From: Bispira polyomma
Taxonomy: Eukaryota
NCBI GenBank assembly: GCA_965649765.1
Contig: OZ287756.1
Coordinates: forward strand, 33,852,001-33,916,000
Direction of reading: 5' to 3'
DNA: 64,000 bases
Part shown: one piece after another, positions 8,618 through 54,394 of the stretch
How positions within the stretch are numbered: position 1 is the stretch's first letter
How the letters are laid out: the number at the start of each line of letters is the position of its first letter
The notes under the pieces: generated by a model
Database searches by the model: none
What the model was told of the DNA's origin: nothing
Seen by the model: the letters and a program-made list of their open reading frames with translations, nothing else
Made by a program: the position numbers and the translations under genes

Positions 8618-8828
8618 TGTGCACAACACGACTACTCTAGGGGTCTGTTAGTTCAGTCCAACATAAGATTTATCCAACCTTAAAAATTTTAGGTTACACA
8701 TAACCTTTATTTTCCTGTTTATGTGACAACCTCCAATCAAATTCAAGCTTAGTCACCCATGACCGCTCCCCTCCATTCTCTTAGCATTATTAACTCGAGA
8801 TTTGAACGAGCAACACAGACATTTTGAA
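8618..8828 (+). repeat. E1 repeat A1 (211 bp)
   Basis: Matches 14140-14350 with 2 differences seen. Confidence 0.95.
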
Positions 8829-8903
8829 AACTGGAATGTATACAGTAATTTTTATTTATGTTATTTTAGTTTGTTTTTAGTTTTATACATCCAGTAATTA
8901 TTT

Positions 8904-10322
8904 ATGTATAGTGTGATCCATAAGAAGAAAATGGGCAAAACAACGAAGAAAACGCCAGTTACAAGGGCGAACAAAGCTAGGACTAAGAAGAGCACGGTAA
9001 TTTCTACAGACCTCAGCAAAGGTCAGCAGGTATCTGACTTTATAGTTTCCGAGGTTCAAGCTCAGTTAACTGCCTTAGCGGCTAGACCTCTCGAACCGTC
9101 TCCAGAATTCTTGTCCACAACTACTACCAACTCCGGGGCCGTTTATGGTCAGGTCACACCTGCACGTGCACCTAATACCATCACCACTGAGTCTTCATTG
9201 CCACATACTCTGGGTTACTCGACTGCAGACAGAGACCTTCCTTATGCTGGGGTTACACCTTCACGTTTGCAGACCACATCGGGGGCGACTGTCATTCAAC
9301 CATTCATGGCGAGTCAACAGCCCATGTCGAGCGTTACTGTTAGCACAGACAGCTCATCAGAGATGCTGGCTATACTCAGACGACTGGAAACTTCGAACGC
9401 AGAACTCAGTCAGCGAATCAGTAAGGTTGAAACGACTCAGACCCAACAAGCGTTACTTACTAGGCCGGCAGCAGATACCACAGGAAAACACCATTCCACT
9501 TTGGCACCTCCGGCGTCAGTAGCTCCACCTCCATTAGGTCACACGTGGGCGTTGAATTCAGGTCCAACCACATTATCCTCAGGTCATCAGGATTTTGCTA
9601 AGGACGGCGTGGTTCCACAACTGGACACTCTTCGGGCGATACCAGCTATACAGGCTGCCATAGCCAGGCAGTTAGCGAGATATGAGACCAATAACCAAAG
9701 AGACATTCTTCAAGGTAAGGCTCCAGTAAAACAGAAATCTGGGCGTTATAACAGTTCTGACATTTCCACAGCAGACCCCAAATTTCGATGGCCGAATGAG
9801 GGGTGGGTAGGCGTTAACGCAAAACGGAAACCGACTTTTGACGACTTGTCTTTGGCGCAATGGGCAGCTGGGCAGCTCAACAATGCTCTTCTAGTAGCAG
9901 ACCCTGCCTTGATGAAAGGTATGATCCAGCAAGTAGTTCACACGCTCTGGGACGCGGCAGCTCTTCCCTGGCCAGTGGTTCGCACGGCCTGGGGCCACAG
10001 TATGCAGGAAATAGAAGAAGGGCAACTTACATGGGACAACCAAACGCAGTGGGCTTTAAATAGATTAAGTGCATTTCAAATGGCACTAGTAAGCAATACT
10101 GGGAACAATGGTAGCAATGATCTGAGTAAGGGGAAACAAAATGAATTTAAGACGATCTGTAAGTTGTACAACAGTGGGAAATGTTCTCACAAAACCGACC
10201 ATGCTAATTACAGGCACATTTGTTGGCATTGTTCAAAAACACTTTGTAAGGATGCAGAGTTTAAATGCTTTAAATTCCAGGCCAATCTGAACAAGAACCT
10301 AGAACAGTCAAATAATCGTTAG
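8904..10322 (+). CDS. gag: E1 gag-like ORF1 (intact, C-terminal Cys/His knuckles)
   Basis: 472-aa ORF; KSGRYN..WPNE..FDDL block shared with E3 gag; CxxYNxGxCxH...HICxxC. Confidence 0.85.
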   Translation: MYSVIHKKKMGKTTKKTPVTRANKARTKKSTVISTDLSKGQQVSDFIVSEVQAQLTALAARPLEPSPEFLSTTTTNSGAVYGQVTPARAPNTITTESSLPHTLGYSTADRDLPYAGVTPSRLQTTSGATVIQPFMASQQPMSSVTVSTDSSSEMLAILRRLETSNAELSQRISKVETTQTQQALLTRPAADTTGKHHSTLAPPASVAPPPLGHTWALNSGPTTLSSGHQDFAKDGVVPQLDTLRAIPAIQAAIARQLARYETNNQRDILQGKAPVKQKSGRYNSSDISTADPKFRWPNEGWVGVNAKRKPTFDDLSLAQWAAGQLNNALLVADPALMKGMIQQVVHTLWDAAALPWPVVRTAWGHSMQEIEEGQLTWDNQTQWALNRLSAFQMALVSNTGNNGSNDLSKGKQNEFKTICKLYNSGKCSHKTDHANYRHICWHCSKTLCKDAEFKCFKFQANLNKNLEQSNNR

Positions 10323-12967
10323 GGACAATACCGTCAGCCAATCAGCGAATCGGAAGTGTATAGTATTAAGCAGGAAAGTAGTTTAATTTGTGTCACTAGT
10401 AAGGAAGGTAAACAAGTTGGTACTAAAATAAATAATGATGATCTTAATGCCAAGACTAATTCTAACATTGCCAATAATGTTCACATGCAGGTAGTGGAGA
10501 ACACACCAAGGGAGTATTATGATACTGTGAATGATTTAAAAAATAGTAGAAAGGTAGTTAATTGTTTACAGGAAAATTTTGAGGATACTAATCCTATTTT
10601 ATCAGTTAAGTTCTACGGTAAAGATACTGGTTGTACTACCGGTGAAACTATTCAAGTGCATATATCTGTTACAAATTTCTCTGAAATTTCAAGTTATGGG
10701 GGAGTCATGGCCCCAGTGGTTTATATTCAGAGTGAAAATAAGAACTTTAGCAAGGGCTTCTATTGCCTTTGTCACTGTGCTACATACAATTGTATGGTAT
10801 ATTCTCCAACAGTTGTTAATTCAACAGGTGAACTGCAAATTATAGATTCATACAAAGCTGAAATTTGGTGGGAAGATAGTGTAATAGGAAAAATTCAACC
10901 TAGTATTGCTAATTATTCTTATGATATCAGGCAACAAGCAAAAAACTGTTACTATTACCATGGAAGAGATTTGCAGTCCTCTGTTCAACATAATTATAAC
11001 TATACTTCTTATATAGAAAATGTTATTGATGTTTTAATTAAGCAGTCACAGGCAGCAGATGTCTGTCATGTCAAAGATAGTCAAAATGTAAATAAAATGA
11101 TTGTTAATAAAAGCAAGCAGGTAAAGGTGAGTAGTGACAACTTACCGTATTCACACACGCATCCGTCTGTCTTCTTCGAAAATTGTCATAGCACAAATAT
11201 CCAGGTAGACAGAAATATTACCAGTTCTGGTAACACTGACATTAATAATCCAGATAAAACTACAGGTTTCATGGCACTTTCTTCCACAAAATTTGAATTT
11301 ATAGGTCCTGACAGGAAACCTGTCAACATTGACTCGGTAGGAAAAATGATTGAAATCGGCAAGTTGGTTAGTGACACTGAGCTTCCTAGCTACAAAAAAG
11401 CCAGGTATCCAATCATTTCAGGTTTGAACCCAAGTGCTTGGGAAAACATTTTTTCCGATTATCCTGGTAATCCAGTATGTTAAATTTGGATTTCCTTTAA
11501 GTCTTACTAATTCTGATAGCTTAAACAATATAAGAATAAAAAAACACTTCTCTGCTTTACAACACACTAAGGCTGTAGGTCAATATCTAGACAAAGAGAA
11601 AGACAATGGAGCTATGTTGGGCCCAGTCAAAGCCATTCACTCTACACAATTACATTGTTCTCCATTATTAACTCGTCCAAAAGATGTTGACAAAAGGCGA
11701 GTAATTTTGAATCTCTCTTATCCCCAGGGTAATTCCCTGAATGACAATGTTAACAAAGTACAGTTTGACGGGGTAAAATTTAAATTAAAATTTCCAACGA
11801 TAGATGATATTACACAGGCAATTCGTTGCACTCAGGAACCGACTTTGTTTAAAATCGATATTTCGCGCGCATTTTGTAACCTTTGTAAAATTTTGTAAGT
11901 TGGGCATATCTTGGAACGACGAGTTGTATCTGGATCCGGCGATTCCATTCGGGTGGGTTCATGGGAGCGGGGCGTTTCAGCGATGCTCAGACGCAGTAGC
12001 ATTTCATATGAATAAGTCAGGTTTTAATTTACTTTGCTACATCGATGACTACATATGTATCACACCTAAACATAAGGCTAAGGAAGGCTTTGAAATTTTA
12101 ACAGATTTACTATGTAAATTAGGTATTCCCATGAACAGCGACCAACTCACCCCACTCACACAGACTATGACATGTTTGGGCATAGATATTGATATACAGA
12201 AGGGCACAATTTCTATCACTAAAGAAAAAATTACCCAAATTTGGGATCTATGTTTGGAAATTTATAATAAAAAATTCATTTCAAAAAACAAATTTCAATC
12301 CTTGTTAGGTAGTCTGCTGTACATTCACAAATGTGTGAAGCCAGCGCGTACTTTCATAAATAGATTCTTAATAGCATTTAGAGGCAATACTAACAAGCGC
12401 ATTAAGGTCAATGTGGACATGAAAAGTGATTTACAATGGTTTCTAAAATTTCTGCCTTCCTACAACGGAGTCACATATATTAACTCCACCATAGTTTTGC
12501 ACGCTAACGAACTACATCTGGACGCTTGTCTCACAGGGTTTGGAGGCGTTTGGGGTGACCAGGTATATGCAACTCCGATACATAACGTTTACAACCGAGA
12601 CTTAAATATTGCACAACTCGAGATGTTAAATATTATAATAGCTATTAGAATCTGGGCGAATGACTGGGCCCACAGCAAATTAAACATTCATTGTGATAAC
12701 ATGGCTGTAGTATTGGTTGTCGGATCCCAAAAGACTAAAGATGATTTCTTAGCACTCTGTTTAAGAAACTTGTGGCTAATAGCAGCAGTATATCATATAA
12801 CACTTACTATAGAACATATTCCTGGGAAACAAAATATTACAGCAGACGCTTTATCTAGAGTATACTCACCTAACCCACCTTGTGTGGAAATGATGGAGGC
12901 ATTAAACAATAATTTTCAATGGAAACAAGTTCCATTGGAACACTTTAACCTTAATTTATCTGTGTAA
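10323..12967 (+). pseudogene. pol: E1 pol: N-terminal extension + RT + RNase H, two frameshifts (~11470, ~11890)
   Basis: FGFP, CSPLLTRPK, KIDISRAF, PFG, YIDD, LDACLTG, HCDN, NITADALSR. Confidence 0.9.
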
Positions 12968-12970
12968 TAG

Positions 12971-13970
12971 CAGGCTCTACCAACCTCAGCAGCCAATTTG
13001 TAGCCTCAGCCTGGAACAGAATTGACACTGCCGTCAGACCAAAGACAGCTAGTGCTTACAAGTCACAATTTAATACCGTTCTGGAATTTAATTATTTTGT
13101 TGGCATTTATCAAGTAACGGTACATTCTAGTATTTCTAGAGTATCTGGTTCAAGCAGGGTTATCACCCAGGGCTATAAACAACTATTTAGCTACCATTAA
13201 ATACATGATACAAAAATATCAACTAGACCCTACACCATTATCACACAAATACATTCAATTATTCTTGAGAAGCTTGACACATAATTCAGCTTTCAAGCCA
13301 AAACACAAAGGCATTTTCGACATACAACAACTGGCTAGTATTTCCAAGGCGTGCAATATTCTGGAAGATCCATTATTGTTCACTGCTATATTCCTCATGG
13401 CATTTTTTGCTTTTTTGAGACTGTCTAGCATAGCAGCACACTCAAAATCGGCCTTTGACCCTACCAGACATTTCCTTAGGCAAGACCTATTATTTAGACC
13501 ACCTGGGGCACATATAACACTTAAGTGGGCGAAAAACTTACAAAACAGATCTGACACACACATAATACAGATTCCTGAACTTCACAATACTATATTGTGC
13601 CCTGTATTAGCTTTAAGAAAATTGCTTGCTTCCAGGAATCTTGCACATAAAGCACCTTTTTGCAATGGCTACCCCACTTTTCTACCCTGTGGTGGATTCT
13701 CACGTGAGGGCAGCTCTTCAAAAAATTTTAGAACACATTGGCATTGAATACAAATCACATGGCTCCCATAGTTTTCGAAGATCTGGAGCTACATATGCAT
13801 TCAACAATAATGTTTCATTACAGAATATAATGTCACATGGCTTGTGGAGGTCTTCAGCTGTATGGACCTACTTGCAACAGACTTCAGAAGCAGCTTCTGT
13901 TGTCCCCCTCACTTTTGCTTCCACCATTCCTCCTTCCTCTTATTTGGGCTTGGGTGTCAAACAATTTTAA
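12971..13970 (+). pseudogene. E1 tyrosine recombinase, frameshifts near 13125 and 13657
   Basis: FLRLSS (Arg), KWAKN, CPV, HSFRRSGA, HGLWRS, AVWTY. Confidence 0.9.
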
Positions 13971-14141
13971 AATAATTTTAAACTTTTTATTACTTTACAT
14001 CTTATCTGTACATGTACATATATACTAACGTGTAAAAAATAAAATCCTCAAACAGAGTTTCATTGACTTATAAATTCATTCCAACAAACTTCTTTGGGAA
14101 TCATCTTAACTTATTGCTTTCACATCTTAGAACTTGGACTG
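13952..14141 (+). repeat. E1 repeat B1 (190 bp)
   Basis: Matches 15639-15709 + 16206-16324. Confidence 0.92.
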
Positions 14142-14350
14142 TGCACAACACGACTACCCTAGGGGTCTGTTAGTTCAGTCCAACATAAGATTTATCCAAC
14201 CTTAAAAATTTTAGGTTACACATAACCTTTATTTTCCTGTTTATGTGACAACCTCCAATCAAATTCAAGCTTAGTCACCCATGACCGCTCCCCTCCATTC
14301 TCTTAGCATTATTTACTCGAGATTTGAACGAGCAACACAGACATTTTGAA
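14140..14350 (+). repeat. E1 repeat A2
   Basis: Direct copy of 8618-8828, abutting B1 at gac-TG-tgc. Confidence 0.95.
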
Positions 14351-14799
14351 CCCACCACCTCCCCTTACCACAGCAGAGTATATGTGATTGAGGGACAGCT
14401 TAGGGGCGAGTTGAGCCTTGTTCGTGTCGCGTTCGGTTCCTGCTTCCATAAACTTACCTTTGGCGTGGCTGCCAAAGGAATTCGGAGCTCTGCGAGCAGG
14501 GACCGGCCGGGGCTAGGCGAGTCGGTGCCGCAGGTCCGGGGTTCAATCCGTTCCGGGCTGGTTGATTGCCTTCCAATATTGTAGTTGGAATTTGGTATGG
14601 TTTATCGTAGTTCATTTGTACACTTCTTTGAAAAATTTTGAGTTTCCAGAGGGATCTTACTCATTCCATTGTTATAATAAGGCCAAGTCACCCATTGCTT
14701 GACCTTGTGAATTAGGGATAACTAAGTTAGGGGTATGGCTATGTTAATGGTAAAATTACTGGTTTAGTTACATCTTATCCCTTCCTTAAGGTTATTCCT

Positions 14800-15086
14800 C
14801 ACCTACAGGACGTAGAGTAATATAGACTGACTCTAGGGTAGCTGGGCACTCTTAGGCTGTCGCTAATGTCAGAAGTTCGCTTCAAGTACTTCAATAAATG
14901 ATAAAATATACTTATAAACTGCAGTGCACTAGTATTGCTAAAAATACAAAAATTTAACAATTTAGATTCGAACACCATTTATTTTCCCTTTTTCCCACCT
15001 ACAGGATGTAGAGTAATATAGACCGGCTCCAAGGGAGCTGGGCACTCTTGGGCGGTCGCCATTTTTAGAAACTTGCTTCAAGTATT
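14800..15086 (+). repeat. ~92-bp direct repeat pair in the E1 spacer (14800-14891, 14996-15086)
   Basis: cacctacagga.gtagagtaatatagac...gctgggcactctt.ggc.gtcgc occurs twice. Confidence 0.85.
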
Positions 15087-15410
15087 TAAAAATTGCTGGA
15101 TATGTAGATGATGTATGTGATTATAAATATGTGTAATTAGTTGTTTTAGTAAGGCAACTTTATTTGAATGGCCATGATTATGGCTTGATTATTGCCCAGT
15201 ACAGGGGTAATAATGTTTATTCTAACAATCAGTTTATGCCAGGTTTATGGCCATGTACTGGGTTATGAACTAGTTCGCTAGTATGTTCAGGGGAAAAGAT
15301 TCGGTTAGGCATTGCCTTATGGATATATAACACACCCTATGCTTCTGTTATGTCAAAGTCGAGTTATAATGGGGCTAGTCCCTCAGATTTTAACGAAGTT
15401 ATTTTAATTA

Positions 15411-15558
15411 TCTTAGTATACTATTATTATGTTGCTGGTAGTAATTACTTGTATAAACACTATATAACATTATAGTATTATGTCTTAGTATACTATTATT
15501 ATGTTGCTGGTAGTAATTACTTAGATAAACACTATATAACATTATAGTATTATGTCTT
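15411..15558 (+). repeat. 72-bp tandem duplication
   Basis: tcttagtatactattattatgttgctggtagtaattactt... occurs twice. Confidence 0.9.
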
Positions 15559-15638
15559 GCATACATGATCCTACTGTATTATTTGATGAAGGGATCTTAA
15601 TGTTAATATTCTATGTTATTGGCACGGCACTTGTTAGC

Positions 15639-16324
15639 GGGTGTCAAAAAATTTCAAAATAATTTTAAAATTTTTATTACTTTACATCTTATCTGTACAT
15701 GTACATATAATCTAATCTAATCTAGTTGTACTTTTATAGCGCTTAATCTTTGTACAACAAATTCTAAGGCGCAACAAACCCAAAACGTTAATCGAAAATT
15801 AAAAATAGTGGGCGGATGGAAGTCGTAACCAGGGAGACTACCGTAAATGGTTGCGACGGCTAAGGTGGAAAAGCCTGTTCAAAAAGATAGGCCTTCAGCT
15901 TACTCCTGAAAGAGGAGAAAGTTTGAGCCAGGCGAACATGATCAGGTAGGCTGTTCCAAATGAGGGGGCCATCATGAGCTAGGCAGTGATTGAACTGAAC
16001 TTTGGATTTGTGGATGCGAGGGTCGAAAGTGGGAATGTTAAGGTATATTTTATCAGGGTTACTGCGCCTTGTCCTGACTGAGCATGCATATTTGGATAGA
16101 TGGGGGCTAAAATAAGTGGGTAATCCAGAATTTAGAAATTTATATATTATTGTTGCTGTTTTGAAAGCAACACGATATTTTATTGAGAGCCAGTGTATAC
16201 ATATATACTAACGTGTAAAAAATGAAATCCTCAAACAGAGTTTCATTGACTTATAAATTCATTCCAACAAACTTCTTTGGGAATCATCTTAACTTATTGC
16301 TTTCACATTTTAGAACTTGGACTG
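15639..16324 (+). repeat. E1 repeat B2, split by a LINE insertion
   Basis: 71 bp + 119 bp reconstitute the 190-bp B repeat. Confidence 0.9.
15710..16197 (-). mobile_element. 5'-truncated L2/CR1-clade LINE with 8-bp TSD tacatata
   Basis: Minus strand encodes HWLSIKYRVAFKTATIIYKFL...WNSLPDHVR; (TAGAT)n tail; TSD at 15702-15709 and 16198-16205. Confidence 0.88.
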
Positions 16325-20385: not shown

Positions 20386-20504
20386 GTCAGTGACATTATA
20401 CATTATATTAAGCATAAAAATGCTCTTTGTCAGTAAAAATCATTTCATTTGTAGCAATGTACAATATACACAAATTATTTACTTTCCTATGCATGATATT
20501 ACTT

Positions 20505-20990: not shown

Positions 20991-21012
20991 GTTGCATATA
21001 TAAGGCCCAAAC

Positions 21013-21606: not shown

Positions 21607-21715
21607 CCTCTGTGGATTATAATATATTACTATTATATGCAAGTAAAAACATAAAACACCGATAAAGTACAGTTGATATTAACATAAATTAATTAGTGTC
21701 CTTTATTTTGAACAG

Positions 21716-25000: not shown

Positions 25001-25408
25001 GGTGGGGAAATTTGACAGTCCTTTAGTATTCAGTTCTTACAACTGACTTCTCAAGACAGGGGGAGGATTCTATATAGACCAAACGACCAGACAAAGGAAC
25101 AACTCAAAGCAGGGGGCATGAGGAGAATAGTAATAAAAACGCTCCCCAAGAGTAAGATGACTTTGTAAGGCAGTGCCCCAGCATTGGCGCTCTCAGTTCT
25201 GGGGGACCAGTCTACCTTGCAACGCTTCATTGATTGCGGACAGTATATAAGGAAGCTTCTTTTAAATTCCCCGCCATAATAACAATAGCGTTCACAGAAC
25301 AACAAGTTTAAAGCGGACATATTGGAAATTCTTGGAAACTCGATTTTATGTCTGGAAATTTACTTTGGTTTTAGAGTTTTTAGTTCTTTTATACATTTTG
25401 ATGTTATA

Positions 25409-26416
25409 ATGGCTCCAGTATATAAATGTTCTAAGTGTCAGGGCAACCACGGAAGGCCTGTGGGGGCTGTTTGCACAAATGAAGCTGTGGTTGTTGAGGT
25501 AGCTGCTGGTGCCGTTTCGTCTGAGGATTCATCCGTTCCAGTCATAAATTCTAGTTTGGAAGCAAATGTTTCTAGTCAAATCTTACTGCAACTGCAATCT
25601 ATGTCACAAATGATGGAACGGATGGATCAGTGAGTTCAGCAGACAGAGGCGGCACTGGCAGTGGACAAAGCTCAGGCTAGTACTAGTTCTAATTCCAGTA
25701 TTTCCGGTGGTTCTGTGAACAGTGTTAGTAGTGAAGGGTTAACCTCCGATAGTATAATCCCAGGTGTTGAATTCCTACGCAAAAATACCTAGATACAAAG
25801 CCAAGTAAAAATAAGGCTAGCGAAACTCAAACAATTGAATGAAAATCCGCAAGGTAAATTGAAATCACAAAGGGGGGGCGTTGATGTGGTATTTAAATGC
25901 GTGGTCGAATGGCCCCAAAACCATGCTTAAACAGGCAGCTTTAAATCCATACCAACCTACGACGATTTGTCTTTAAACCAGTGGGTATGCGGTTTTACCG
26001 GAATAATTCAAGAGGAAAAGTCCAACGAAATCCGTGAAATAATGCCCGATTATATGGCCAACTTAATGGAAGATGCAGAGGACTTCTCTTGGAAAGCTGC
26101 CAAAGCATGTCACGCCGTTGTGCTTACCCATATGGAGATGGACAAGGTCAAATGGTCGGATGTCAAAAAATTAGATAGATTTCGGAGGGCAGATGCCCAG
26201 CGACATATTGTTGGTACTGGTGCTACAAATGTCAGTTGCAATATCAGTAAATTAAATGTATCAAGCAAGCAGTCCACTGCTAACTGCAAAAAAGATGGTT
26301 TATGCAAGTTTCCTAACAGCCACAAAACGGGTAATACCTATTTCAAACACATATGTGAAACTTGTGGGGGAACTCACAAGACTAGTGCTTGTACTAGAAA
26401 AAATTAAAAAAACTGA
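25409..26416 (+). pseudogene. gag: E2 gag (in-frame stops at 25631, ~25790, ~25928, 26405)
   Basis: MAPVYKCSKCQGNHGRPVGAVC; QGKLKSQRGG; WPQ; PTYDDLSLNQW; KHICETC. Confidence 0.8.
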
Positions 26417-28880
26417 GGGGCCACTGCAGTTCTGGGAAACCAAGGTATTTGCAAGAACTTTTCACAATTCAGAGTTCACAGATTTCCATTTGTTTAATAA
26501 AAGTACAAGGGAAAGAATGCTTGCATACAGCAGGGGTACACGGGCTTCCTATTCATATAGTCAGGCGCTAAAATGTGTAAATAAAGCAAAATATGATGGG
26601 AGTATAAAAATGAATGTAAAAAGGTAAATGAATGCATGGGTAAAACTCGTGTTCAAGTTGATAGCAAAAAAGTACACAGCCGAGCTCCCCCACGTGTTCA
26701 TAAATTTAGAAGTGTAAATAATGTTAGTGAAACTTGTGTATCCTCTCTCCCTTCCACGCAACTAAAAGTCACAAACTGTTTGTCGGGAAACAATGCCAGT
26801 CCTAAGAATAGAAACACTAGTTGTAAATGGAGTCAGAAAAGTACTGAGGAGTCACGTTGGCACAATAGGTTTCAACCCCTTAGACAAACCATTGTTGCGT
26901 TGGGTAACAGCTATGGGGAGGTGGGGGAGAGTATTAGTAGTATGGTGACCCATAGAGGCCCTCAGAATTTGTTTTTAAAAATTATCAAATATGACAATGC
27001 TCCAAGACAGGATAATATTCCCCATGTAAAAACAAAAGTGGAAGTGGTGCCTGAGGACTCAGTTGTCTCTTCTGATAAATATGCTTTAGAGCTGAATCAA
27101 AAGCGTAATAAGCGAGATTTACTCGTAAAGGCTTTAACAAATGACACCCACATGCAATGGAACGAGCAAAACAATGTAGAGTACGGTTTCATACCCCTTA
27201 CCACATTGGGATGTAAAATTTGGGACAATGGGTCAACAGATCATGGGCTCGATATATTAGAAATGCATGCCAAACTGAGAGGGGATGGGAGGCCTAATTA
27301 CAAAGGCCTACAACTCGCTGTAAATTCTCAGCTACATGCTGAAAAATGAAAAAAGTACCTTGTTGACTATTTGGACTGGCAGCTGCCTCTGCTGGTAAAG
27401 TATGGCTTTCCCCTGGACGTGTGTAGGGAAGATATCAGTTAGTCAGATAACCCAAATCATAGTTCTGCTGAAAGTTTTCCTGAACACGTGGATACATATC
27501 TCAAAGAAGAATGTCAATTTGGTGCCATTTTAGGGCCTTTTCAGGACCCCCTATTAAAAACCTTCACTGCTCACCTATGATGACGTGTGAAAAATCAAGT
27601 TTTACAAATAGAAAAGTAATAATCAATTTAAGTTGGCAGCATGGTCAGTCAGTGAACGCAGGTGCTTCTGCTAACTCATATCTTGAAACTGAATTTATCT
27701 TGTCATATCTGTCCATCGATGATGTTACCAGGGAAGTCACTAAGCTGGGTAAGGGCTGTCATATCTTTAAAGTGGATGTGGGTAGGGCATTCAGGCACGT
27801 CCTCATAGATCCTGGGGACATAAATTTATTAGGTTTAAAAAGGAAACAGTACTATGTCGAAAAATGCCTCCCATTCGGATGCCAGAATGGCAGTACAATA
27901 TTTCAGCGTTTATCAGACGCGGTTAGATTCATAATGAAGACGGAAGGACACAATGTCCACAACTACATAGATGATTTTTGACCGTTTCACTCCCTAGTAA
28001 GATAGGTGACATTTATGTACATCTGCAAGCCCTTTTGCAGGAGCTCGGACTCACAGTGAGTCAGAAAAAGTTAGTTCCTCCCAGTACCCGGGTAATATGC
28101 CTAGAAATACTCATAGACACTGATAAGTTTACTACCTCTATACCCGGTGAGAAAATGGTCAAAATCAGACAAAAATGTGCCATTTGGCACAACAAGCAGT
28201 ATTGTACTAAGAAGGAACTTCAGTCCCTCCTAGGTTCCCTTTTATATGTTGCCAAATGCATAAAGTATGCTCAGTTTTTCTAAACCGGATGTTGCAGTTA
28301 GTTAGAGATAATCACAGTAAGACTAGGTTTCGTGTCACTGAGGATTTTGGGCGTGATCTCAATTGGTTCAGAAACTTTATGCAACAATTTAATGGGGTTT
28401 TCTTTTTCTCACATAAGACCACACATGCCCAAGTGGAACTAGATTCCTATTTAACTGAGATGGGGGGATCTGTGGCAAGGAGGTTTACAAGTTACAAATA
28501 CCTGAACAGATGACGACCGACAATATTGCCTCCCTTGAAATGGTAAATATTCTTGTGGCCCTGAAATTATGGTCTAGGGTTTGGAGGGGATGCAGAATCC
28601 TGTTTAAGTGTGACAATCAGGCAGTAGTTAGTATTTTAGAAACTGGGCGCACACAAGACCCCTTCTGGCGGCATACACCAGAAACATCTATATGTGGGCT
28701 AGTAGATTTGATATAGATATCAGAGTAATACACATATTAGGGGTTAAAAATAAAATAGAAGATATCCTCTCCCGTTGGGATAAAACCCGAAATAATATGT
28801 TTCTGCTGGCTCAATGGGCGGGCCCCGTTAAGTGGTTGCAAACTGATGATTCTCTACTGAAAATTGGCCACACAACATAG
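26417..28880 (+). pseudogene. pol: E2 pol (RT + RNase H), heavily disrupted
   Basis: YGFIPL, KYGFPLD, KVDVGRAFR, LPFG, NYIDDF, LQSLLGSL, KCDNQAVV. Confidence 0.88.
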
Positions 28881-28921
28881 TTTTGTCACATGTCTATATA
28901 GTGAATTGTGTTTTCATCCAC

Positions 28922-29932
28922 TGGATGCCTTGCTTAGAGACAAAGCTTGTAAGAGGTTGCATTCTGCCTTTGCTGAGTCTACAGCCAGAGCTTATAATTC
29001 AATGTTTAAGCTGTTCCTGGCCTTTGGGGCTTTCATGCAGTGGCCAGTACGTCAGGTGACTGTATTTGCTATTTTATCATTGTTTGAATTCTTGAACTTT
29101 AATCATATGTCAGCATCTCAAATTGCTAATCATCTCTTGGCTGTCAAAGCTAAATGCATACTCTTTCATGTAAATGTGGACTGTTTTTCAGATCCACACA
29201 CATCTTACTATAATAAGGCTCTAGTTCTGAACAAACCTTTACAAGCGAAATTAAAAGCAGTATTTGATATTCCGTTATTAACTGCCTTAGTGGCCAAATG
29301 TGATAGTACTTATATGGGCCAAATTTTCAAGCCCGTTTACCTCACTAGTTTTTTCAGTTTTCTGAGGCTCTCCAATTTGTGTCCCCACTCTGTGGTGGCA
29401 TTTCCCCCACTGAAGCAGTTGGTCAGAGGGATGTGCTTTTCAAACCGTGTTATATTACTTTACTAATTAAGTGGTCTAAGACCATGCAGACTAATAATCA
29501 GATTAAACTGTTAAACATTCCTGTTCTGCAAAATTCCAGCCTGTGTCCTGTAGCAGCTTTGAAGAATTCCTTGGCTCTTACCCCCACCCCCCCCACCCCC
29601 CTCCACCCCCACCCCCCACCCCCGGCTCTAATGCTCCTCTCTTTCACTATAGGCTAGGTGGCTCCTGAATTCCCTTGATGGACATGAGTGTACGACGCCA
29701 CCTGAAAAACGTTTTGCAGCTCCTGGGCTGTGGTCATCGCAACCTAACCTTTCATGCTTTCAGGCGTTCAGGTGCCACGTTTGCTTTTAACAATAATGTA
29801 AACATACAAGACATACAGCGTCATGGCACCTGGACTTCGGACTCTGTGTGGAGATATATCACCGACTCTGCCCACACTAGTTTTCAGGTGGCCAACTCTT
29901 TCAGATCTGCCCTTCAGCCTACTCCTAAGTGA
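28922..29932 (+). pseudogene. E2 tyrosine recombinase, frameshifted
   Basis: FLRLSNL, KWSKT, CPV, HAFRRSGA, HGTWTS, VWRY. Confidence 0.88.
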
Positions 29933-30797
29933 TTTGGTGTTTGGTGGTCTAGCATCTACGGGTCACCTGTTAAATAAATATAAATATTAATGTATAATAT
30001 ATAAAATCTGGACAGTTTACAATTCCCCCTGTCCTTTGGGCATAGGTCAACTTATATCTCAGCACATTATGTACTCTTACACATTCTATTTCAAATCACT
30101 TGGTAACCTTTATAGTATGCTGTAAAGTAACATTAAACTCAAGTTAGGGCCACCATTGGGTGCCCTTAACTTACAGACTAAATCTAATTCAAGGTATGGT
30201 TGGTCAAATCTTAAGTTAAAGTCAGGGTCACTTAAGGGTGCCCTTAATCCCCATACCTTGCATACCCGGTTGCTCTTCTTAAATTCATGTTAAGGCCAAT
30301 GTTAGGCCTTCTTAAATTCTAAATCTAAGGTGACCTTAAGTCAACCTTTCTTTTCAAACTTAAGGTGACTTTACGTTCACCTCAAACTCGTGCTGAGTTT
30401 AAGTTGGCCTTATGCCCTAACCTTAAACTATGAAACTGTACATAATAAACCTGTAGAGCTAACAATACTAGAAGTGCTAATAAAATATTTCCGCAATTCT
30501 TTTACTGTGTTGTTTAAGGACTTGCTATGCTCTAAGAGCTAGTCGCCTCAATGACTTTCCTTAGACCACAGGGAACTGGTATGTATTGTGGGTAGCTATG
30601 ATAAAACTGTATTGCTGAGTATTACTCCAGCATGAGGTTCTTTTGAGGAAATAAACTCCAGTTAGACATGGCAGCCACTTTGTAGAATCATCCCTACATG
30701 CTGACATAAAAGGACTGGGAGCATATGCAGGATCACAATCACCTGTGGGACAAACTTAAAGCACTGTATGAAACGGATCATCCAGAGACACATAAAA

Positions 30798-31035: not shown

Positions 31036-31159
31036 CAGTACCCTAATCAGCCGCCAGGTAGCTGTGGTGACTCTACTCCACCCATGTGCAGTCACATGTT
31101 GATCATCATATTAATTTGGCACACCAATTAGGGTTACAGATAGAGTAGAGGGGGAAGTC

Positions 31160-44820: not shown

Positions 44821-47022
44821 AAATCATAAGGGACACAATCCAAGTCTTATCAAATAACCTATTTAAATCTACAATATTGTATTTTGTAAAGTCAAAGTAA
44901 TTAACCCATTTTTAGACTATATAAGAAAGGTTTTTGTTATTTGGATTTATGTAACTTTTGAGCAGTGCATCATTGGTTCCTTTTAAAAAATGTTCAGGAC
45001 AAACGTCTCATAATTGTAAAAATGCCTTTCATATTTACAGTATACCACTGCATCTGTACTGTTGTTTAAAAAAAAATTAAACCCTGAAAAGTGGGATTGG
45101 TATTTCAAATCATATTGGGATTGGTAGCTTCCCCTATTGGTCAAGTACCGCTTTCGACTCGATGTAAAGCGCGAAAACATTAGCCAATCAGATGGTAGTA
45201 ATCACAAATCGACTGTCGACTTTCTCGAACCTGTGGATGTATTCCTAAAAGAGAAATGCAAAAAAGGTGCCATATTAGGGCCCTTTAAAAATATACCAAT
45301 AGAAAACATGCCTTTTTCACAAATAATGACATGCAATAAGTTTAGCTCAAGTATCAGGTCAAGTAAGGTCATTATAGATTTCAGCTAGTTCGTTGGCAAA
45401 TCAGTTAATGCTGGGACTTCACATATTAAATACTTATGTTATGTATTGCTTATTGTCACATCTTTCCATTGATAATCTGACCGATGAAGTCGTGTAACTA
45501 GGCAGAGGTTGCCAGATATTTAAAGTCTATGTGAATCGTGCATTAAGGCATGTGCTTATCGACCCTGGAGACAGATTTGCTTGGCCTGAAGTGGGAGTCC
45601 TATTATCTGAACAGATCTCTCCAATTTGGTTATCAAACAGATCCACTATTTTTCAGCCTCTGTCCGATATGGTCAGATATATAATGTTCTAAGAAGGTTT
45701 TCACATACACGCCTAAATGGATGATTATCGCTGCCTATGTACAACAGACTGCTAATCCTATTACAATAATTAGGCCTAACTGTGAGATAAAACAAAATTT
45801 AAAATAAAAGCCAATTACTGCAATATACTAGAAACATTTACATGTGGACCAGTCATTTTGAAATTGACATTAAGGTCATACACATTTCGTGAGTTAAACA
45901 TAAAGTGTCTGATCTGCTCTTCAGATAGGACACGATCAAAAATATTAGTCTTTTTTGCATTAATCGGTTTGACCTGTAAAGTGGAACCCTACTGACCTGT
46001 TAAATGTGAACATTATTATTATAATATGTGTACATTGTAGTGGGCACTCTACTGACAAAAATTGCTAGTAGAAGAATGCACACTGCTTTTGCTACGTCCA
46101 CTGATAATGCTTATACCGGCATGTTTAAGTTGTTTTTGGCATTCAGTATCTTCATGGACTAGCCAGCTACTCAGGTGAACAGATTCCAATTGCTAGCATA
46201 TCTACAATTTCGAACTGTCTGTCTCCTTCTCAAATTCCCAACAATTTGTCCGCTGTAAAAGCTAAATGTATATTATTTCACATCAAAGTGAATGCTTTTT
46301 CAGATCCCAGAATTTCATATTATAGTGAAAACTTAAAATACTCTTTGATATACCACTTTTGGTAAATATAATTGAAACGTGTGGCTGTACCTATATGGGA
46401 CAGATATTTAAAGCCATTTATTTTAAGTTTTTTCAGTTTTTTTTCCGACTTTGAACTTGTGCCCTTATTTCAACGCCAGCTTCTCTCCACTGAAGCACCT
46501 GGCCAGAGGGGACATTCTTTTCAAACCTGGATATGTCATGATACTGATTAAAGGACCAAAAGCAAGCAAACGTACGATGCAGTTAAACTGCTTTCGTTGC
46601 CTGCGTAACTTATTCTAAACTGTGTCCAGTTGCCGCTATTAAAACAGCACTGGCACTTACCCCCTCTGGGCTGAATGCCCCCCTATTTCAATATAAGTTG
46701 GCAAGTTCCTGGGCCCTATGACCGACATTCAAGTTAGACATCACCTTTAAACCATCCTGTAAATGTAGAATTTACAACATTCAAATCTGACTTTTCACAC
46801 CTTCTGGCATTCGGGTACCTCTTTCGGTTTAAACAATAAAGTTTGTCTGCAAGCATCCAGCGTCATGCCACCTGCATGTTGGACTGTGGTGATGTATCAC
46901 TGACTCGGCCAAGGTCGGCACCCAGGTGGCTGATTCGTTCTGCCAGGCCCAACAGCATACTTTCTAGGTGTACTTGGTGGACTAAGACATCTCCCCCCCC
47001 CCCGAAAAGTTAAATATATACA

Positions 47023-47248
47023 TGTTGTAGTCATTGCTCGCAAAGCATGGCTAGTCAGTCGTGAAGTTGTAATACCTTACGGTATTATATACTTACTTAA
47101 GAATTGTTTACCCAGATACACCAATCCTAGACCAGAACCTCTTTTACTTCACTACCAATCAAATCCCTTAGCTTTTAGTCAATTTCCCGCCTTTTCTCAC
47201 ATTTGGTCATTATTAAGTTGCAAGTTAATGTAGCAACACCTTGAAATT
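47023..47248 (+). repeat. E3 repeat A1 (226 bp)
   Basis: No difference seen versus 52547-52772. Confidence 0.96.
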
Positions 47249-47417
47249 ACATTGGAATCGGCAAATAGAGCCGCCATATTGGAAATAACTGTTTGCGTGT
47301 AGGGAAACAAGCTTATTTTATATTTATTAAACATTATTTTACCTTTTTGTTTAGTGATTTTAGTGAGTTTTAACTTTTCTCATCTTATAGTGTGCCTTTT
47401 GTGTTGGATATCTTATT

Positions 47418-48779
47418 ATGGACCGTGCGAAGAAGAAGACTGTGGCTTTGTGTTCACGCTGTAATTTTTCACATTCTCGACCAGTGGGTACTAGGTGTCG
47501 GCTGGCCATTTAAGACGCCACGTCGGACGCAGAAGCCAGCAGAGTTTTTTCTACTGAAGTCCATGGTGCAGACGTTGAAACCAGCACGCTCAACTCCGTT
47601 GCTGACTCGAGTCACATTTCTGAAGATCACGTGAGTTTTGGTCAGTTTTACAAAGACGTTTTCACAGAGCAGCAGTCTATGATGAAAACACTAGTGTCCA
47701 CGGTAGCTAAGTTACAGGAAGACGTATCCGACTTAAAGACGTCTCGTTCATCTTCCCCCCAGGTCTCGTCAACATCTCAGACAATTAGGCCTCAGAGGGC
47801 AGCTCCACCTAAGCTTCCAGCACCTTTTACACAAAACATGGGCTCTTCTTTACCATTTACTCAGAGCTTCCCTCAGCTTCAGAACCCGCCAGTGAATTAC
47901 ACAGGAGTCAACGATCTTCGTTCTCACGTTTCTCATGACACTTACCCGACACGTCACAACACTCAGTTCCCAGACACACGACCAGTTCATTTGCCACCTT
48001 AACGGGAGGGCTACACACAGGACCACGCTCAGAGGTCCCTACAGAATGCAATCCTGCCTACTCCAGATGTATTAAAGCAGTCCGTTATGATACAGAACGA
48101 GGTTTCACAACGATTAGCCCGTTACGAGGCGTGGGCCGCTGATGAATCGCTTCAAGGTAAGCTCAGTACTAAACGCAAATCTGGTCGCTACAATGTATCT
48201 GAAGTGTGTGTCACCGACCCAATGAAATGTTGGCCTAATGAAGCATGTTTTTCTGGTGTGAGTAAGAAACGAGTTTCTTATGATGAGCTTACTGTGTCAC
48301 AATTTGCTGCAGGTCAGTTGCAGAACATCTTAGAAGTGAGAAACCCTACTATTTCTCGCGCCATGTTAATCCAGTTAGCAGATACTTTAAAAGATGCTTC
48401 TAATATCTCCTGGCAGATAGCCAGAGGTTCGTATGCATGTAACATGCACGATGTGGAAGAGGGGCGCCTCAGCTGGGTAGACGAAACTAGGTGGACAATG
48501 AACCGACTGTCCTATTCCCAGGCCTTAATTTCGAACGGCGCATCTTCAAATTCAACTTCCTCGAATTCCTCCTCGGCCACCGGAAAGCATGAGATGCCAT
48601 GCAGGCACTACCAGAAGAATACGTGTCAGCATCAGAAAGACCATGAGGGCAACAACGCCATTTTTAAACACATCTGTGCCAATTGTTTTCGTTTGCATAA
48701 GAAGCACAATGCACATCCAGAATCCAAGTGTTTTAAACTTCACGGACGCCCCGCAGTGCCCGCAAACGCACCCCAATAG
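47418..48779 (+). pseudogene. gag: E3 gag with in-frame TAA at 47511 and 48000
   Basis: MDRAKKKTVALCSRCNFSHSRPVGTRC; ORF-track pieces 47631 and 48087 are in the same frame; KSGRYN, WPNE, CRHYQxxxCxH, KHICANC. Confidence 0.87.
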
Positions 48780-51371
48780 GGGTGCGGACTGTCGACAGTC
48801 ACCACAGCCAGTGGTTATATACAGTATGTTAAACCGGATGTCGAGACTGCAGAGCAGGAGCATTCTGAGAGCATGAACTTAAGACATGAGTATAATAAGC
48901 AAAATTTTGAGTTAGTTAATCAAAGGAACATTTTTATGTACAGTATGAGCTTTAGGGATGGACAGTTCTTAAATGATTGTTCTCGTGATGTATTCACGAC
49001 AGATGGACAAAATAACGTCTCGTGTAGTAGCAACTCCGCCTTATGTTCTGTTGGTCACAAGTTATGTCCACCAAAAGTTCATGGCAGTAGTAATTTTATT
49101 GCAACCTCATTTCTGGTTTATTTGTATAGTAGTCACAGTTATGATGTCCTTAAAGGCCCAGTGTATTATATTGTTTGTAATGCTGACTCCAGTGTCTCAG
49201 GTGCATACACTTGGGTTTTCTTTCAAGGTCAATGGTCTCTTCAGAAACATGACCTCTCTCTACAAAAAATGTGGCCCACCAGTTTGGTTTGCACAGGTTC
49301 TGTACCTGTTTTACTTAGAAACACTGCTTCATATACCAAGGTTCGACCTTTACCAAAACATAAGAAGGTCACCCATACCCGTACAAACATCAGTTCTTCT
49401 GATTATTATATTGCCATCATTGACAACATTTGTAGTCGAACCACTCAAACAACATACGACAAGCATATAAACGCACGTGTGGATGACAAGTTTCTTTCGC
49501 GGAACCATACAATAACTGAGGACACACATATAGTAACCAACATTCCACAGGACGTTGTATTACAGAACAGTGACATACAGCACTCCCCCATAATGGAAGA
49601 AATTGTGAATGAGGACATTTTACTTACTGACCAATGAACTTATGGCTTCATCCCTCACGGGAGAAACCATTTTAACTTCATAGGACCAGACAGACAACAG
49701 GTAGACTTGACTTCTTATGATAAGTTAATTGAAGTAGCTGATATCATAAAGACCACTAAGGTACCAAACTACAGACAAGCGCGTTTTCCCATCAAAAGTG
49801 ATCTCAATGTTCTCAATTGGAAGAAATACCTACTCGATTATCCGGATCAAATCGTTCTACAGTATGTAGAATTCGGGTTTCCTATATCTCTGTATGAGAG
49901 GGACAGATTGAAGGTCATAAATGTCAAAAACCATTCTTCCGCTATGGCATTTCCACAAGCCATTGACAAGTATTTCCTTACAGAAGTAGCTAAGGGCACC
50001 ATAGTCGGTCCTATTTCAGGAAAACTTCACCCGGATATACATTGCTCACCTTTATTAACAGTACCTAAAGATATTGATCAGCGTCGTTTAGTTCTAAACC
50101 TTTCTCACCCCCTTGGACAATCTGTAAATGATTGTACAATTAAAAATAAATATGATAACGTCGCTTTTAACTTAAGGTTACCTACCATTGATCAAATCAC
50201 TACCCGTATTATTGAGTTAGGAACTAAGGCCACCTTAGCGAAAGTGGACATCACTCACGCGTTTAGAAATTTAAGAATTGATCCTTTGGATTGTTTAAAG
50301 TTAGGTTACCTTTGGAAAAATAATTACTTCATTGATCTCAGTCTAACTTTTGGACTCACTCATGGCATGGCGGCCTTTATGATTATTTCTGATTGTATTA
50401 CTTACATTATGAGACAGAAAGGATATATAGTCTACAACTATATCGACGATTTTATACTCATTGAGACTGAAGATAAGGCTGCCTTAGCTTATACTACTTT
50501 GCAACAAATCCTAGCAGACCTAGGTCTCCCTATTAACACCAAGAAATTAGTTCCCCCCAGTAAGCGTGTAACTTGCATGGGCATCACTATTGACATAGAC
50601 CTCCAAACACTCAGTATTGAACAAACTAAATTAAACTCTATATTTGACACATGTTTGGAATTTAAATACTTGCATAAAGTACGTAAACAGAAGTACCAGT
50701 CACTACTGGGAAAGTTGTTGTACATACAGCGCTGTGTGAAGAATTCTCGGATATTCATGAATAGAATGTTAACGTTATTACGGCAGTCTACTAGTAGTAA
50801 AACAGTATTTTTGACAAGTGACTTTCATAAGGATTTACAATGGTTTTTAACTTTTCTCAGACAATTCAATGGTACAACTAAGTACACATACATGGATAGT
50901 TCACATGACGTGTCATTACAAGTCGACGCTTGTTTATCCGGAATCGGTGGCATATCTGGTTTAGAAGTGTTCAAAGCTCCTCTACCATGCGTCCTTAAAC
51001 AAACACTTTCCATTGTCCATTTCGAAATGGTCAGTATTCTCATAGCTTTCAAATTATGGGGTCACAAATGGAGTAATAAAAAGATCAAGATACAATCGGA
51101 TAACATGGCTGTGGTGTCTGTCGTACAGTCATCTAGAACCAGGGACGACTATTTAGGTTTGTGTTTAAGGAACATCTGGCAGATCTGTACCTTAAGGAAT
51201 ATTGACTTGACTATCAGACATATACCTGGCAAAGACAACATAATAGCAGACGCTCTATCTAGGTGGTTTGAATTAGACCATTTTGACAACACAATAAGAC
51301 AGGAACTCTTACACAACTTCATCATGCATGACATACCCATTGAATGTTTTACCTTAGATACTTATGTGTAA
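48780..51371 (+). CDS. pol: E3 pol: N-terminal extension, TGA at 49635, then intact RT + RNase H
   Basis: ORFs 48873 and 49707 are in the same frame; KVDITHAF, NYIDDF, VDACLSG, SDNMAVV, NIIADALSR. Confidence 0.9.
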
Positions 51372-52357
51372 TTTCAGATCCTTCTGACCCAGCCTCCTCA
51401 CTGATCAAAGGAGCTTTGAGACGGCTGAGACAAACTTACAGACCTAGGACACAAAGACAATATGACAGCCAGTTTAGACTTTTCTTGAGCTTCACAGTTT
51501 ACTTTGATTTAAAGGAAACCTTCTGCTTTAACAGCGTTATAGCTTTTTTGGAATTTATGACACAAACAGGTGTCTCGTACAAAGTATTGAGTAATTACTT
51601 ATCTTCCATTAGGCACAACACAAAAATTCTGAACATTCAGCAAACTGGTCTTTATGATCCTAGATTGCCATTATATTTGAGGTCATTACAACTCACTTCC
51701 AAATACACACCTCGGGTCAAAGGGGTTTTCGATTTGCACCAATTACAACAGATTTCACAAGCTTGTAGCCAGTTTCAATTTCCTGATTTATTCAGAACAG
51801 CTTTTTTGTTTGCTTATTTTGGTTTTTTACGCATTTCTAACCTGACCACCACATCAGGTCTCCCCTTTGATCCTACCAGACACCTGACAAGGGCTGACCT
51901 GTTGTTTGCCCCCCCAGGCATTCACCTCATATTAAAATGGAGTAAGACTAACCAAACCAGGAAAAACCCAGACATCATACAATTACCAGAACTTTCAAAC
52001 CCATGGCTCTGTCCTGTAAAGGCAGCCACTTCGCTATTTCACAAACACCCTCTCCCTCCTTCTTATCCATTACTGGCAAACCCACTAAATAAAGACCAGT
52101 GCCTCTCAGACTCTAGTTTAAGGCACACTCTTAGCTCTATCTTAACACAGTTAAAAATCCCAAAAGAGGGGCATTCCTTCCATTGCTTCAGGCGCTCAGG
52201 TGTCTCCTTGGCATTTAATGCTAATGTTAAACTTCAGCATATCCAAAAACACGGATGCTGGAAATCAGATGCTGTTTGGTCTTACCTTCGATCTACCTCT
52301 CATGCTTCCACAATTATTCCAACAACGTTCGCATCCCTCGTCTCTTCTACTTTCTAA
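51344..52357 (+). CDS. E3 tyrosine recombinase, intact
   Basis: FLRISN, KWSKT, HCFRRSG, HGCWKS, AVWSY supply the catalytic residues. Confidence 0.93.
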   Translation: MFYLRYLCVISDPSDPASSLIKGALRRLRQTYRPRTQRQYDSQFRLFLSFTVYFDLKETFCFNSVIAFLEFMTQTGVSYKVLSNYLSSIRHNTKILNIQQTGLYDPRLPLYLRSLQLTSKYTPRVKGVFDLHQLQQISQACSQFQFPDLFRTAFLFAYFGFLRISNLTTTSGLPFDPTRHLTRADLLFAPPGIHLILKWSKTNQTRKNPDIIQLPELSNPWLCPVKAATSLFHKHPLPPSYPLLANPLNKDQCLSDSSLRHTLSSILTQLKIPKEGHSFHCFRRSGVSLAFNANVKLQHIQKHGCWKSDAVWSYLRSTSHASTIIPTTFASLVSSTF

Positions 52358-52365
52358 TTTGGCTT

Positions 52366-52548
52366 TGGCATTTTAAAATTATTTCATCAAAAATAATTTT
52401 TTGTACAGTTGTATATAGAGACGAGTAGTTAGAATAAAAATTATCCCAAACAGCATCTGATTCCTCACTCTCAATAACTATGACCTTTAAAGGTCACACT
52501 TACCCTAGGACAACATTAGTTCAATGTCACTCACAACTTAAACGACTG
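52366..52548 (+). repeat. E3 repeat B1 (183 bp)
   Basis: Matches 53346-53528. Confidence 0.96.
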
Positions 52549-52772
52549 TTGTAGTCATTGCTCGCAAAGCATGGCTAGTCAGTCGTGAAGTTGTAATACC
52601 TTACGGTATTATATACTTACTTAAGAATTGTTTACCCAGATACACCAATCCTAGACCAGAACCTCTTTTACTTCACTACCAATCAAATCCCTTAGCTTTT
52701 AGTCAATTTCCCGCCTTTTCTCACATTTGGTCATTATTAAGTTGCAAGTTAATGTAGCAACACCTTGAAATT
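52547..52772 (+). repeat. E3 repeat A2
   Basis: Copy of 47023-47248, joined to B1 at gac-TG-ttg. Confidence 0.96.
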
Positions 52773-53345
52773 CCCACCCACCACTTTCCCTTTTACTGGC
52801 TAAAGTTAAAATGAATTTTAAATTTTTCGGACTTAGATGGAGCTCATTAACCATGTGGAAAGTCCTATCTCTTACCCCTCCTCTGAGTTCACGTTTAGGG
52901 TTCCAGGGTTGAAGAAGAGCTCTGTGAGGTAGGACTTTCTGCAGGCGAATAGGTGCCCAGCGTTTCGAGCTCCCATTCATTTTTAAATTTTAAAACAAAA
53001 TTCCTTAGCCAGTAATCACTAACTTAATTTTACTCTTCGGGACTCTGATATTCCGAGTTATTTTGTCGCCCGAATGCGTGGTTGACTTTAGTATACTATG
53101 TATGTCGCCTTTATGTGGTTGACTATATTATTATAGTACATTATCTTATGTCATTTGTCTTAGTATTATTGTTTATGTCCTACGTCTTATGTATTTGACG
53201 ATATATTTTATTTGTTGTAGTATTCAACTTTATGTCGCCCAATTATGTGGTTGGCTTTTATCTTAACACTTTACATACGTTCAGGGTTATTTTTACCCCC
53301 TTTCGTATTTTAGCCAGTTCTTGGTTCTTGTTCATGTAGCCATAA

Positions 53346-53528
53346 TGGCATTTTAAAATTATTTCATCAAAAATAATTTTTTGTACAGTTGTATATAGAG
53401 ACGAGTAGTTAGAATAAAAATGATCCCAAACAGCATCTGATTCCTCACTCTCAATAACTATGACCTTTAAAGGTCACACTTACCCCAGGACAACATTAGT
53501 TCAATGTCACTCACAACTTAAACGACTG
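53346..53528 (+). repeat. E3 repeat B2
   Basis: Copy of 52366-52548. Confidence 0.96.
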
Positions 53529-54394
53529 CTTTAAAAACATGCAAATAGTTAAATGTAAAATAAAAGAGCAGTGATCCCCCTTTTGATAAGGTCTATACTT
53601 GCGTCCTTGTAATGCCTCGGGCACGTTCGCGCATTAGTGCCTAGGCTTGTCTCCACAGTGCTCCTGGTCAGATTGCAAGATGTGAGGAACAACGACTATA
53701 CCACGACTAGACCCATTGGGATAGGGGTTATGTTTAGACCGACAGGGCCAAGACGGCAACACTCTGGATGTACATCATTATATAGCTGAGAGCATTGCTG
53801 CTGTTTTGTGTAAAAGTGCTTCTTTTTGTGTAAAGTGTGTTTTATTTAATATGTTGTCATTCCTCCACCTGTGTAATGTTAAATAGGGGATCGTATTTTT
53901 CGACCAATTAAGACTATTGCAAAATAGCTGGAATGGAAAATTTGTTCAATAAGAGACTTTTCAAAATGGCTGTCATTGGGTAGTAATCCATATACTTTAA
54001 AATGCAAATGATATTTTAATCCTACATTTTAATAATCTCAAAACTAAGTTTAAGAAGTGAACTTATGGTAACCTTAATCTAATTTCCTACCTTAATTTAC
54101 GGTTACCTTAAACTCTTTCATAAATCTGTTGTCACTTTATGCTCTACCTCAAACTAAACTGTATGTATAAAGTATTTGTTTTTTAACAAACCAAGTCAAC
54201 TAATGAAATATTTACCGCAATTGTTTACTGTGTTAAATACAAATAATTATATCAAAGCATATAGACTTGACACCGAGGAACTCTGTCAAATAAAGATCGG
54301 GTTGTATGATGTTCATAATCAAGAGAATAGTAGAGTTACGTGAAGTTCATAGTTGTGAAGGAACTAATAAACCATTTTTCACAATAAGTGTTAG

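Follow-up and report, generated by a model that had tools for sequence, protein, structure and literature searches.

How does a retrotransposon that encodes a tyrosine recombinase (YR) join a chromosomal site with which it shares only two nucleotides? The question is raised by a 64,000-nucleotide stretch of Bispira polyomma DNA (GenBank assembly GCA_965649765.1, contig OZ287756.1, positions 33,852,001 to 33,916,000, forward strand), hereafter the window. It is AT-rich (36% GC) and holds two complete YR retrotransposons, E1 and E3, two decayed relatives, E2 and E4, and one gag relic. An earlier, sequence-only reading had proposed that all four elements use a 2-bp TG crossover core, enter ATG targets and leave no ordinary target-site duplication (TSD). 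Here a YR crossover at a common TG was found to fit E1 and E3, while E2 and E4 gave no valid evidence on the rule. In both complete elements the crossover point lies at the boundary of a conserved stem, a feature like that of integron attC sites.

The TG overlap and the junction stem of E1 and E3

Both elements carry split direct repeats in the order A1–open reading frames (ORFs)–B1A2–B2, and the internal B–A junction can be compared with the two outer ends. The left end of E3 reads tataca[TG]ttgtag (47023-4), its junction aacgac[TG]ttgtag (52547-8) and its right end aacgac[TG]ctttaa (53527-8). The corresponding strings of E1 are ggataa[TG]tgcaca (8618-9), ttggac[TG]tgcaca (14140-1) and ttggac[TG]aattat (16323-4). 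The A and B repeats overlap by exactly 2 nt, TG, in these two elements, the two with definable ends. The earlier strings for both elements were correct, but the span 47020..53532 given for E3 was too wide, the element ending at 53528. When a blunt B–A join was assumed, a TG-covering overlap in both elements had a probability of 0.014, summed over the three possible registers (200,000 random cuts per case). The crossover was placed at TG without any shift in both elements, and none of the bases following TG at the right ends were derived from A. Beyond TG the targets did not resemble the element arms, as a fraction of 0.33-0.70 of the 9145 TG sites scored equally well. From the junctions we infer that TG was present in the pre-insertion targets, which also gives the predicted empty sites.

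The absence of an ordinary TSD held for E3; at E1, AA stands just outside both ends, probably by chance. The proposed ATG preference was not significant: A preceded TG at both sites (n = 2), against a background frequency of 0.29, or 0.37 with C excluded (p = 0.086-0.137). The similarity of the two inferred targets gave p-values of 0.28 ungapped and, when gapped, 0.005, or 0.025 with AT-matching, this being one of several scores tried. The flanks of E1 (8602-8617, 16325-16339) and E3 (47007-47022, 53529-53543) have a shifted GTTA-x-ATAT stretch in common on the left side, which hints weakly at a wider target preference. An intron paralog of the E1 left flank (8347-8511 vs 18409-18581) stops short of the insertion point (176/1000 shuffles). 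The E3 flanks are collinear with uninterrupted E2 (17/1000 shuffles), with the target bases falling in an alignment gap. Relatives outside the window were found neither in two genome-contig scans nor in a tblastn search of plasmids and phages.

An inverted-repeat stem ending on TG, absent from the earlier account, was detected at both junctions. GACTG, the end of B1, pairs with CAGTC 31-34 nt inside A, and TG is the innermost pair of the core stem. Altogether the last 16-18 nt of B pair with an arm inside A. The layout is the same in both elements, with an outer stem, a bulge, a core stem and an inner stem in the loop, the sizes of the bulge and the inner stem differing. In E3, ACAACTT, a 2-nt bulge and ACGACTG face CAGTCGT, 1 nt and AAGTTGT across a loop of 31 nt; in E1, ATCTTA, a 4-nt bulge and TTGGACTG face CAGTCCAA, 2 nt and TAAGAT across a loop of 34 nt.

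Compared with 500 dinucleotide shuffles, in windows picked after the fold was seen, the plus strand of the junction had z -5.1 in E3 (0/500) and -3.3 in E1 (1/500), and the minus strand -3.65 (0/500) and -2.17 (14/500), respectively. The fold energies of the junctions were -11.2 and -16.5 kcal/mol, whereas the integrated ends, with one arm each, reached -1.2 to -4.6 kcal/mol. For the B arm, the start of A was a better pairing partner than random places in 300/300 comparisons for E3 and 298/300 for E1. Perfect stems of at least 7 bp anchored on TG were present at 20 of the 9136 TG sites, the stem being 8 bp in E1 and 7 bp in E3. Five pairs of the core stem are identical between the two elements, and in each of the two that differ the change is compensated by its partner (G:C vs C:G, T:A vs A:T); one further compensatory pair was seen by eye in the outer stem. 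The loop sequences share little. The stem closing on the TG core is real in E1 and E3. No Rfam family was matched (E up to 1).

A proposed folded junction and its rivals

The predicted fold of the E3 YR (predicted local distance difference test, pLDDT, 91) had Cre as its best match (Foldseek E 3e-9; Z 20.6). Residues R154, K192, H271-x-x-R274, W297 and Y305 are present, and we take their roles to be those of their counterparts in Cre. A sequence search of the PDB with the YR returned nothing relevant. In the mechanism proposed here, this Cre-like YR would recombine the B–A junction of the reverse-transcribed copy with a site in the chromosome that has nothing but TG in common with it. The junction would act as a structured attachment site, the B end pairing with the arm inside A, and would become attP-like by folding as a single strand of DNA. 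The YR would make one strand exchange at TG, and replication or repair would resolve the intermediate, as at integron attC sites. Integration would separate the two arms, leaving ends unable to fold, and the intact internal B1A2 copy would stay inert while double-stranded.

A crossover at TG on such a folded, attC-like junction is tentatively favoured and considered quite possible, though short of an even chance; the target TG, the form of the substrate and the number of exchanges are the conjectural parts. Four points favour it: the inner stem, the length of the gap separating the arms, the single-stranded cDNA of DIRS-1 and the hazard that the intact junction in each chromosomal copy would pose if it reacted as duplex. 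The inner stem inside A is better accounted for by a fold than by two bare binding sites in duplex. A 2-nt core could not serve a canonical YR, since a matched spacer of 6-8 bp between inverted arms is needed (PMC3212892). Single strands of integron attC sites fold, undergo one exchange and are resolved by replication (PMC3458562). DIRS-1 has single-stranded cDNA, which is able to integrate after transformation, and a self-complementary junction (PMC7192593). That split-repeat YR retrotransposons as a group integrate in this way, through a folded single-stranded site with a stem closing on a 2-nt core and one exchange resolved by replication, is more doubtful.

Several observations weigh against the folded single-stranded substrate. 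For integration, the authors of the DIRS-1 work prefer a double-stranded circle as substrate (PMC7192593), and the E3 YR model matched integron IntI with a Z of 17.7, below that of Cre. The G.T pairs favour the plus-strand fold slightly, by 1-2 kcal/mol in DNA parameters, a bias that suits RNA or plus-strand DNA and not first-strand cDNA. A single-sequence covariance model of the E3 junction missed the E1 junction at E up to 10, so the inner geometry differs between the two. The bare motif GACTG-N22-45-CAGTC is not rare window-wide, two matches being reached in 10/100 shuffles; its rarity lies only in its position. The sample consists of two elements of common ancestry, and an empty allele was seen for neither. 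A point in favour of the fold comes from E2: when the stem rule, fixed on E1 and E3, was run on it, AAAGGACTG ending at 30717 was seen to be complementary to CAGTCCTTT at 25016. Such a 9-bp anchored match was reached in 14 of the 4752 null draws of random window pairs, and 30717 is tentatively put forward as an alternative right end of E2. This candidate is weakened by its ambiguous left TG (24964, 24967 or 24988), and it has neither a B pair nor a clear inner stem.

The closest rivals of the folded junction are a duplex substrate and a role of the hairpin at the RNA level. A YR could bind the arms at the B end and inside A as asymmetric inverted repeats of a duplex circle, in the manner of IntDOT, with 2-bp identity at the first cut and mismatches tolerated in the rest of the overlap. 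This is rather unlikely. In its favour, two base pairs have to match at the first cleavage by IntDOT (PMC2817482), the standard model of DIRS integration has a double-stranded circle (PMC3266345, PMC7192593), the E3 junction reads in duplex as AACGAC-7 nt-GTCATT with a near-symmetric core, and inverted binding sites would also give compensatory changes. E1, however, lacks the 7-nt symmetric core, and the gap of 31-34 nt is far above the 6-8 bp that separate the arms of typical YR sites (PMC3212892). The lack of a shifted crossover in both elements argues weakly in the same direction. A reactive junction would also persist in every chromosomal copy, and YR sites of Cryptons cause rearrangements (PMC9977147).

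The alternative in which the hairpin acts earlier, in RNA or reverse transcription (template switch, end restoration or poly(A) read-through), and integration is a TG crossover of a duplex circle that ignores the stem, is unlikely to a slightly greater degree. Against it, the crossover dinucleotide is exactly where the stem closes, in E1 as in E3. The better folding of the plus strand through G.T/G.U pairs agrees with it, the strand difference nevertheless being small, and a short sequence common to the inverted terminal repeats and internal complementary regions (ICRs) of DIRS1 has been suggested to serve circle formation (PMC3266345).

It is improbable that both TGs are derived from the element, the ends being restored from the internal B1A2 so that no target TG is needed, or that E1 has a 2-bp AA duplication. 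YR chemistry conserves bases, and E3 has no duplication outside its ends. The published model takes one core copy from the target (PMC7192593), and active Cryptons target their own terminal motif (PMC9977147). On the other side stand the AA outside both E1 ends and the lack of an observed empty allele, the window sequence alone not discriminating between these origins. Chance or functionless inheritance of the TG overlap and the stems can hardly be credited. The sample is small and the repeats of E1 and E3 are distantly homologous, but the overlap probability, the rarity of anchored stems, and compensatory changes in spite of diverged loops all speak against it.

Classification, decayed relatives and neighbouring features

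By repeat layout, domain order and domain content, E1 and E3 are Ngaro-type elements (Table 1). Reverse transcriptase (RT) and RNase H (RH) are followed directly by the YR on the same strand. E3 has no methyltransferase after RNase H, as the RNase H-like match ends at 543/577 aa and the YR overlaps the end. No methylase family was found in any of the 14 homologs scanned. Neither element has inverted terminal repeats or an ICR of DIRS1 type, the repeats being direct only. Membership in the PAT-like group (Pat1, TOC, kangaroo) is not supported, because the split direct repeats come without a methyltransferase domain. The E1 proteins are 36-50% identical to those of E3, and altogether 151 RT-RH and 160 YR protein matches were obtained.

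Table 1. Positions of the elements, their parts and neighbouring features in the window.
Feature	Position	Strand	Remarks
E3, Ngaro-type YR retrotransposon	47023..53528	+	A1-gag-pol-YR-B1A2-spacer-B2
E3 repeat A1	47023..47248	+	starts with TG core 47023-4; 226/226 identical to A2
E3 gag-like ORF	47418..48779	+	in-frame stops at 47511, 48000
E3 pol region	48780..51371	+	RT + RNase H in 49638-51371; in-frame stop at 49635
E3 tyrosine recombinase ORF	51344..52357	+	open; Cre-like predicted fold; catalytic motifs present
E3 repeat B1	52366..52548	+	GACTG is its end
E3 repeat A2	52547..52772	+	
E3 repeat B2	53346..53528	+	181/183 identical to B1; TG core 53527-8 at end
E3 junction hairpin	52533..52594	+	outer stem 52533-39/52588-94; core stem 52542-48/52580-86 closing on TG 52547-8; inner stem 52552-77
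E1, second Ngaro-type element	8618..16324	+	in intron of EGF-repeat gene
E1 repeat A1	8618..8828	+	TG core first; 209/211 identical to A2 (14140-14350)
E1 repeat B1	13952..14141	+	GACTG is its end
E1 repeat B2	15639..16324	+	TG core 16323-4 at end; insertion at about 15716-16197
E1 junction hairpin	14124..14191	+	outer stem 14124-29/14186-91; core stem 14134-41/14176-83 closing on TG 14140-1; weaker inner stem
E2, decayed relative (gag, RT-RH, YR)	25411..29933	+	no split repeats found
E2 candidate A-side arm CAGTCCTTT	25016..25024	+	tentative
E2 candidate right end AAAGGAC[TG]	30709..30717	+	complementary to 25016-24 over 9 bp; tentative
E4 left piece	45065..47022	+	heavily decayed RT + YR related to E2; 3' noncoding part is E3 host site
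E4 right piece	53529..54234	+	54036-54234 66% identical to E2 30310-30511
Glycosyltransferase paralog homology start (paired with 35928)	54284..54289	+	earlier reading's E4 end
EGF-repeat host gene	2127-21831	+	tandem EGF-like cysteine-rich exons, intron-rich; E1 within intron
Glycosyltransferase family 8 paralogs	36039-37175 and 54395-55237	-	89% identical, local duplication

B1 and B2 of E1 are identical at 185 of the 190 aligned positions. The insertion in its B2 (about 480-495 bp) has no second copy within the window. As the three in-frame stops in gag and pol of E3 coexist with identical A repeats, the element may have been mobilised in trans. TGGAAT stands directly after A1 in both E1 (8829-8840) and E3 (47249-47260), in a primer-binding-site-like position, and a CCCACC tract directly after A2 (14351-14370 and 52773-52790, respectively). 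The starts of the A2-B2 spacers (52793-53015 in E3, 14400-14560 in E1) gave multi-branch RNA folds of about -70 kcal/mol each, calculated without a shuffle control, and no match in Rfam.

In E2, neither an A1/A2 or B1/B2 split-repeat pair nor inverted repeats of DIRS1 type were found, and a ranking of virtual junctions over 5782 TG pairs produced no unique winner. The ends previously proposed for this element do not stand out: aacTG, the supposed right end, occurs three times in 29930-31300 without a split-repeat pair, and the supposed start at 24729 is one of 58 TGs in 24300-25300, with nothing to mark it out.

Also for E4 no split repeats were found, and neither GACTG nor CAGTC is present in 53529-54300. 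Both strings of the earlier reading, ctc[TG]tcaa (TG 54284-5) and aaa[TG]tcaa (35925-33), are present as described, but their interpretation as the E4 right end and a paralogous empty site is not supported, as the 100 nt left of the paralog TG have no counterpart in 42400-47022 (109/200 shuffles as good). Positions 35928 and 54284 mark a homology breakpoint between the two glycosyltransferase paralogs that starts with TG by chance, because the left flank of the paralog has no match in the second copy. An E2-like end of the E4 tail was likewise rejected, its last 66 nt failing to match the E2 tail (477/1000 shuffles). E3 is nested in the 3' noncoding part of E4, an older decayed YR retroelement, recalling DIRS-into-DIRS nesting. 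An array of short palindromes downstream of the YR is common to E2 (30035-30511) and E4 (54036-54234), with a fold-back z of -4.0 in E2.

The gag relic, left by a fifth element, lies at 32166-32580 on the minus strand and has a strong hairpin inside it, around 32270-32350. Fragments resembling a Harbinger-type transposase and a LINE RT were recognized by eye, without a tool match, at 40357-40812 (minus strand) and about 31300-31990. An inverted-repeat element is situated at 56000-56281.

Comparison with known systems

A core of 2-3 nt without a TSD has already been published for the DIRS order (PMC3266345, PMC7192593) and is an expected property of it, not a new one. The junctions listed in Table 3 of PMC3266345 are mostly of 3 bp, with two of 2 bp (CG, AA), and in the circle-integration model one core copy comes from the target (PMC7192593). 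The short-homology YR integration that the sequence-only reading took as established agrees with this model (PMC3266345, PMC7192593). The DIRS1-like elements resemble E1 and E3 in having a short circle-junction core at both ends, of 2 bp in AmDIRS1 (CG) and BfDIRS2 (AA), and a self-complementary junction; they differ in their inverted terminal repeats, ICR, methyltransferase and mostly NTT cores (PMC3266345, PMC7192593). E1 and E3 have direct repeats instead, and their stem consists of a short inverted repeat with one arm in B and the other in A.

Kangaroo-1 of Volvox reportedly occurs as a circle, with the dinucleotide TG at its junctions. Like E1 and E3, kangaroo-1 and other PAT elements have split direct repeats (PMC3266345), but PAT belongs to the methyltransferase-bearing DIRS group, in some members with an inverted YR. 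With the Ngaro superfamily E1 and E3 share the order A1-ORFs-B1A2-B2, a common direction of gag, RT-RNase H and YR, and the lack of a methyltransferase; Ngaro elements are also described as leaving no TSD, and the available descriptions give neither the core sequence nor a junction stem (PMC4157794, PMC3783388, PMC8547959). Neither a TG core nor a junction stem was described for Ngaro in the literature searched, the primary Ngaro and kangaroo papers being outside that scope, and the TG-closing junction stem of E1 and E3 was not found there either.

Integration by a YR with very short identity is also known from IntDOT of CTnDOT (2 bp) and from Cryptons (4-6 bp), these being DNA elements that use duplex substrates, and Cryptons excise (PMC2817482, PMC3212892, PMC9977147). 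According to PMC7192593, experiments on the specificity of DIRS-order YRs had yet to be made. With a defined substrate of about 65 nt in the junction stem and an open YR ORF, the integration step of the DIRS order becomes directly testable. The stem rule could be used by curators for locating the ends of split-repeat elements, and a eukaryotic YR requiring only a target TG would be interesting as an enzyme for integration.

In the way it would work, the junction is like attC, a folded site of about 60-70 nt with an outer stem, an unpaired spacer, bulged bases, a variable tip and little sequence conservation (PMC3458562). The comparison concerns function only: attC is bacterial and involves no retro step, and the use of a single strand is shown for attC and conjectured for E1 and E3. 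If the folded junction is the substrate, near-random targeting, irreversibility and the harmlessness of internal junction copies would be explained, and DIRS1-type elements would arrive at the same folded site in a different way, through their inverted repeats. E1 and E3 would then represent a eukaryotic counterpart of integron attC recombination.

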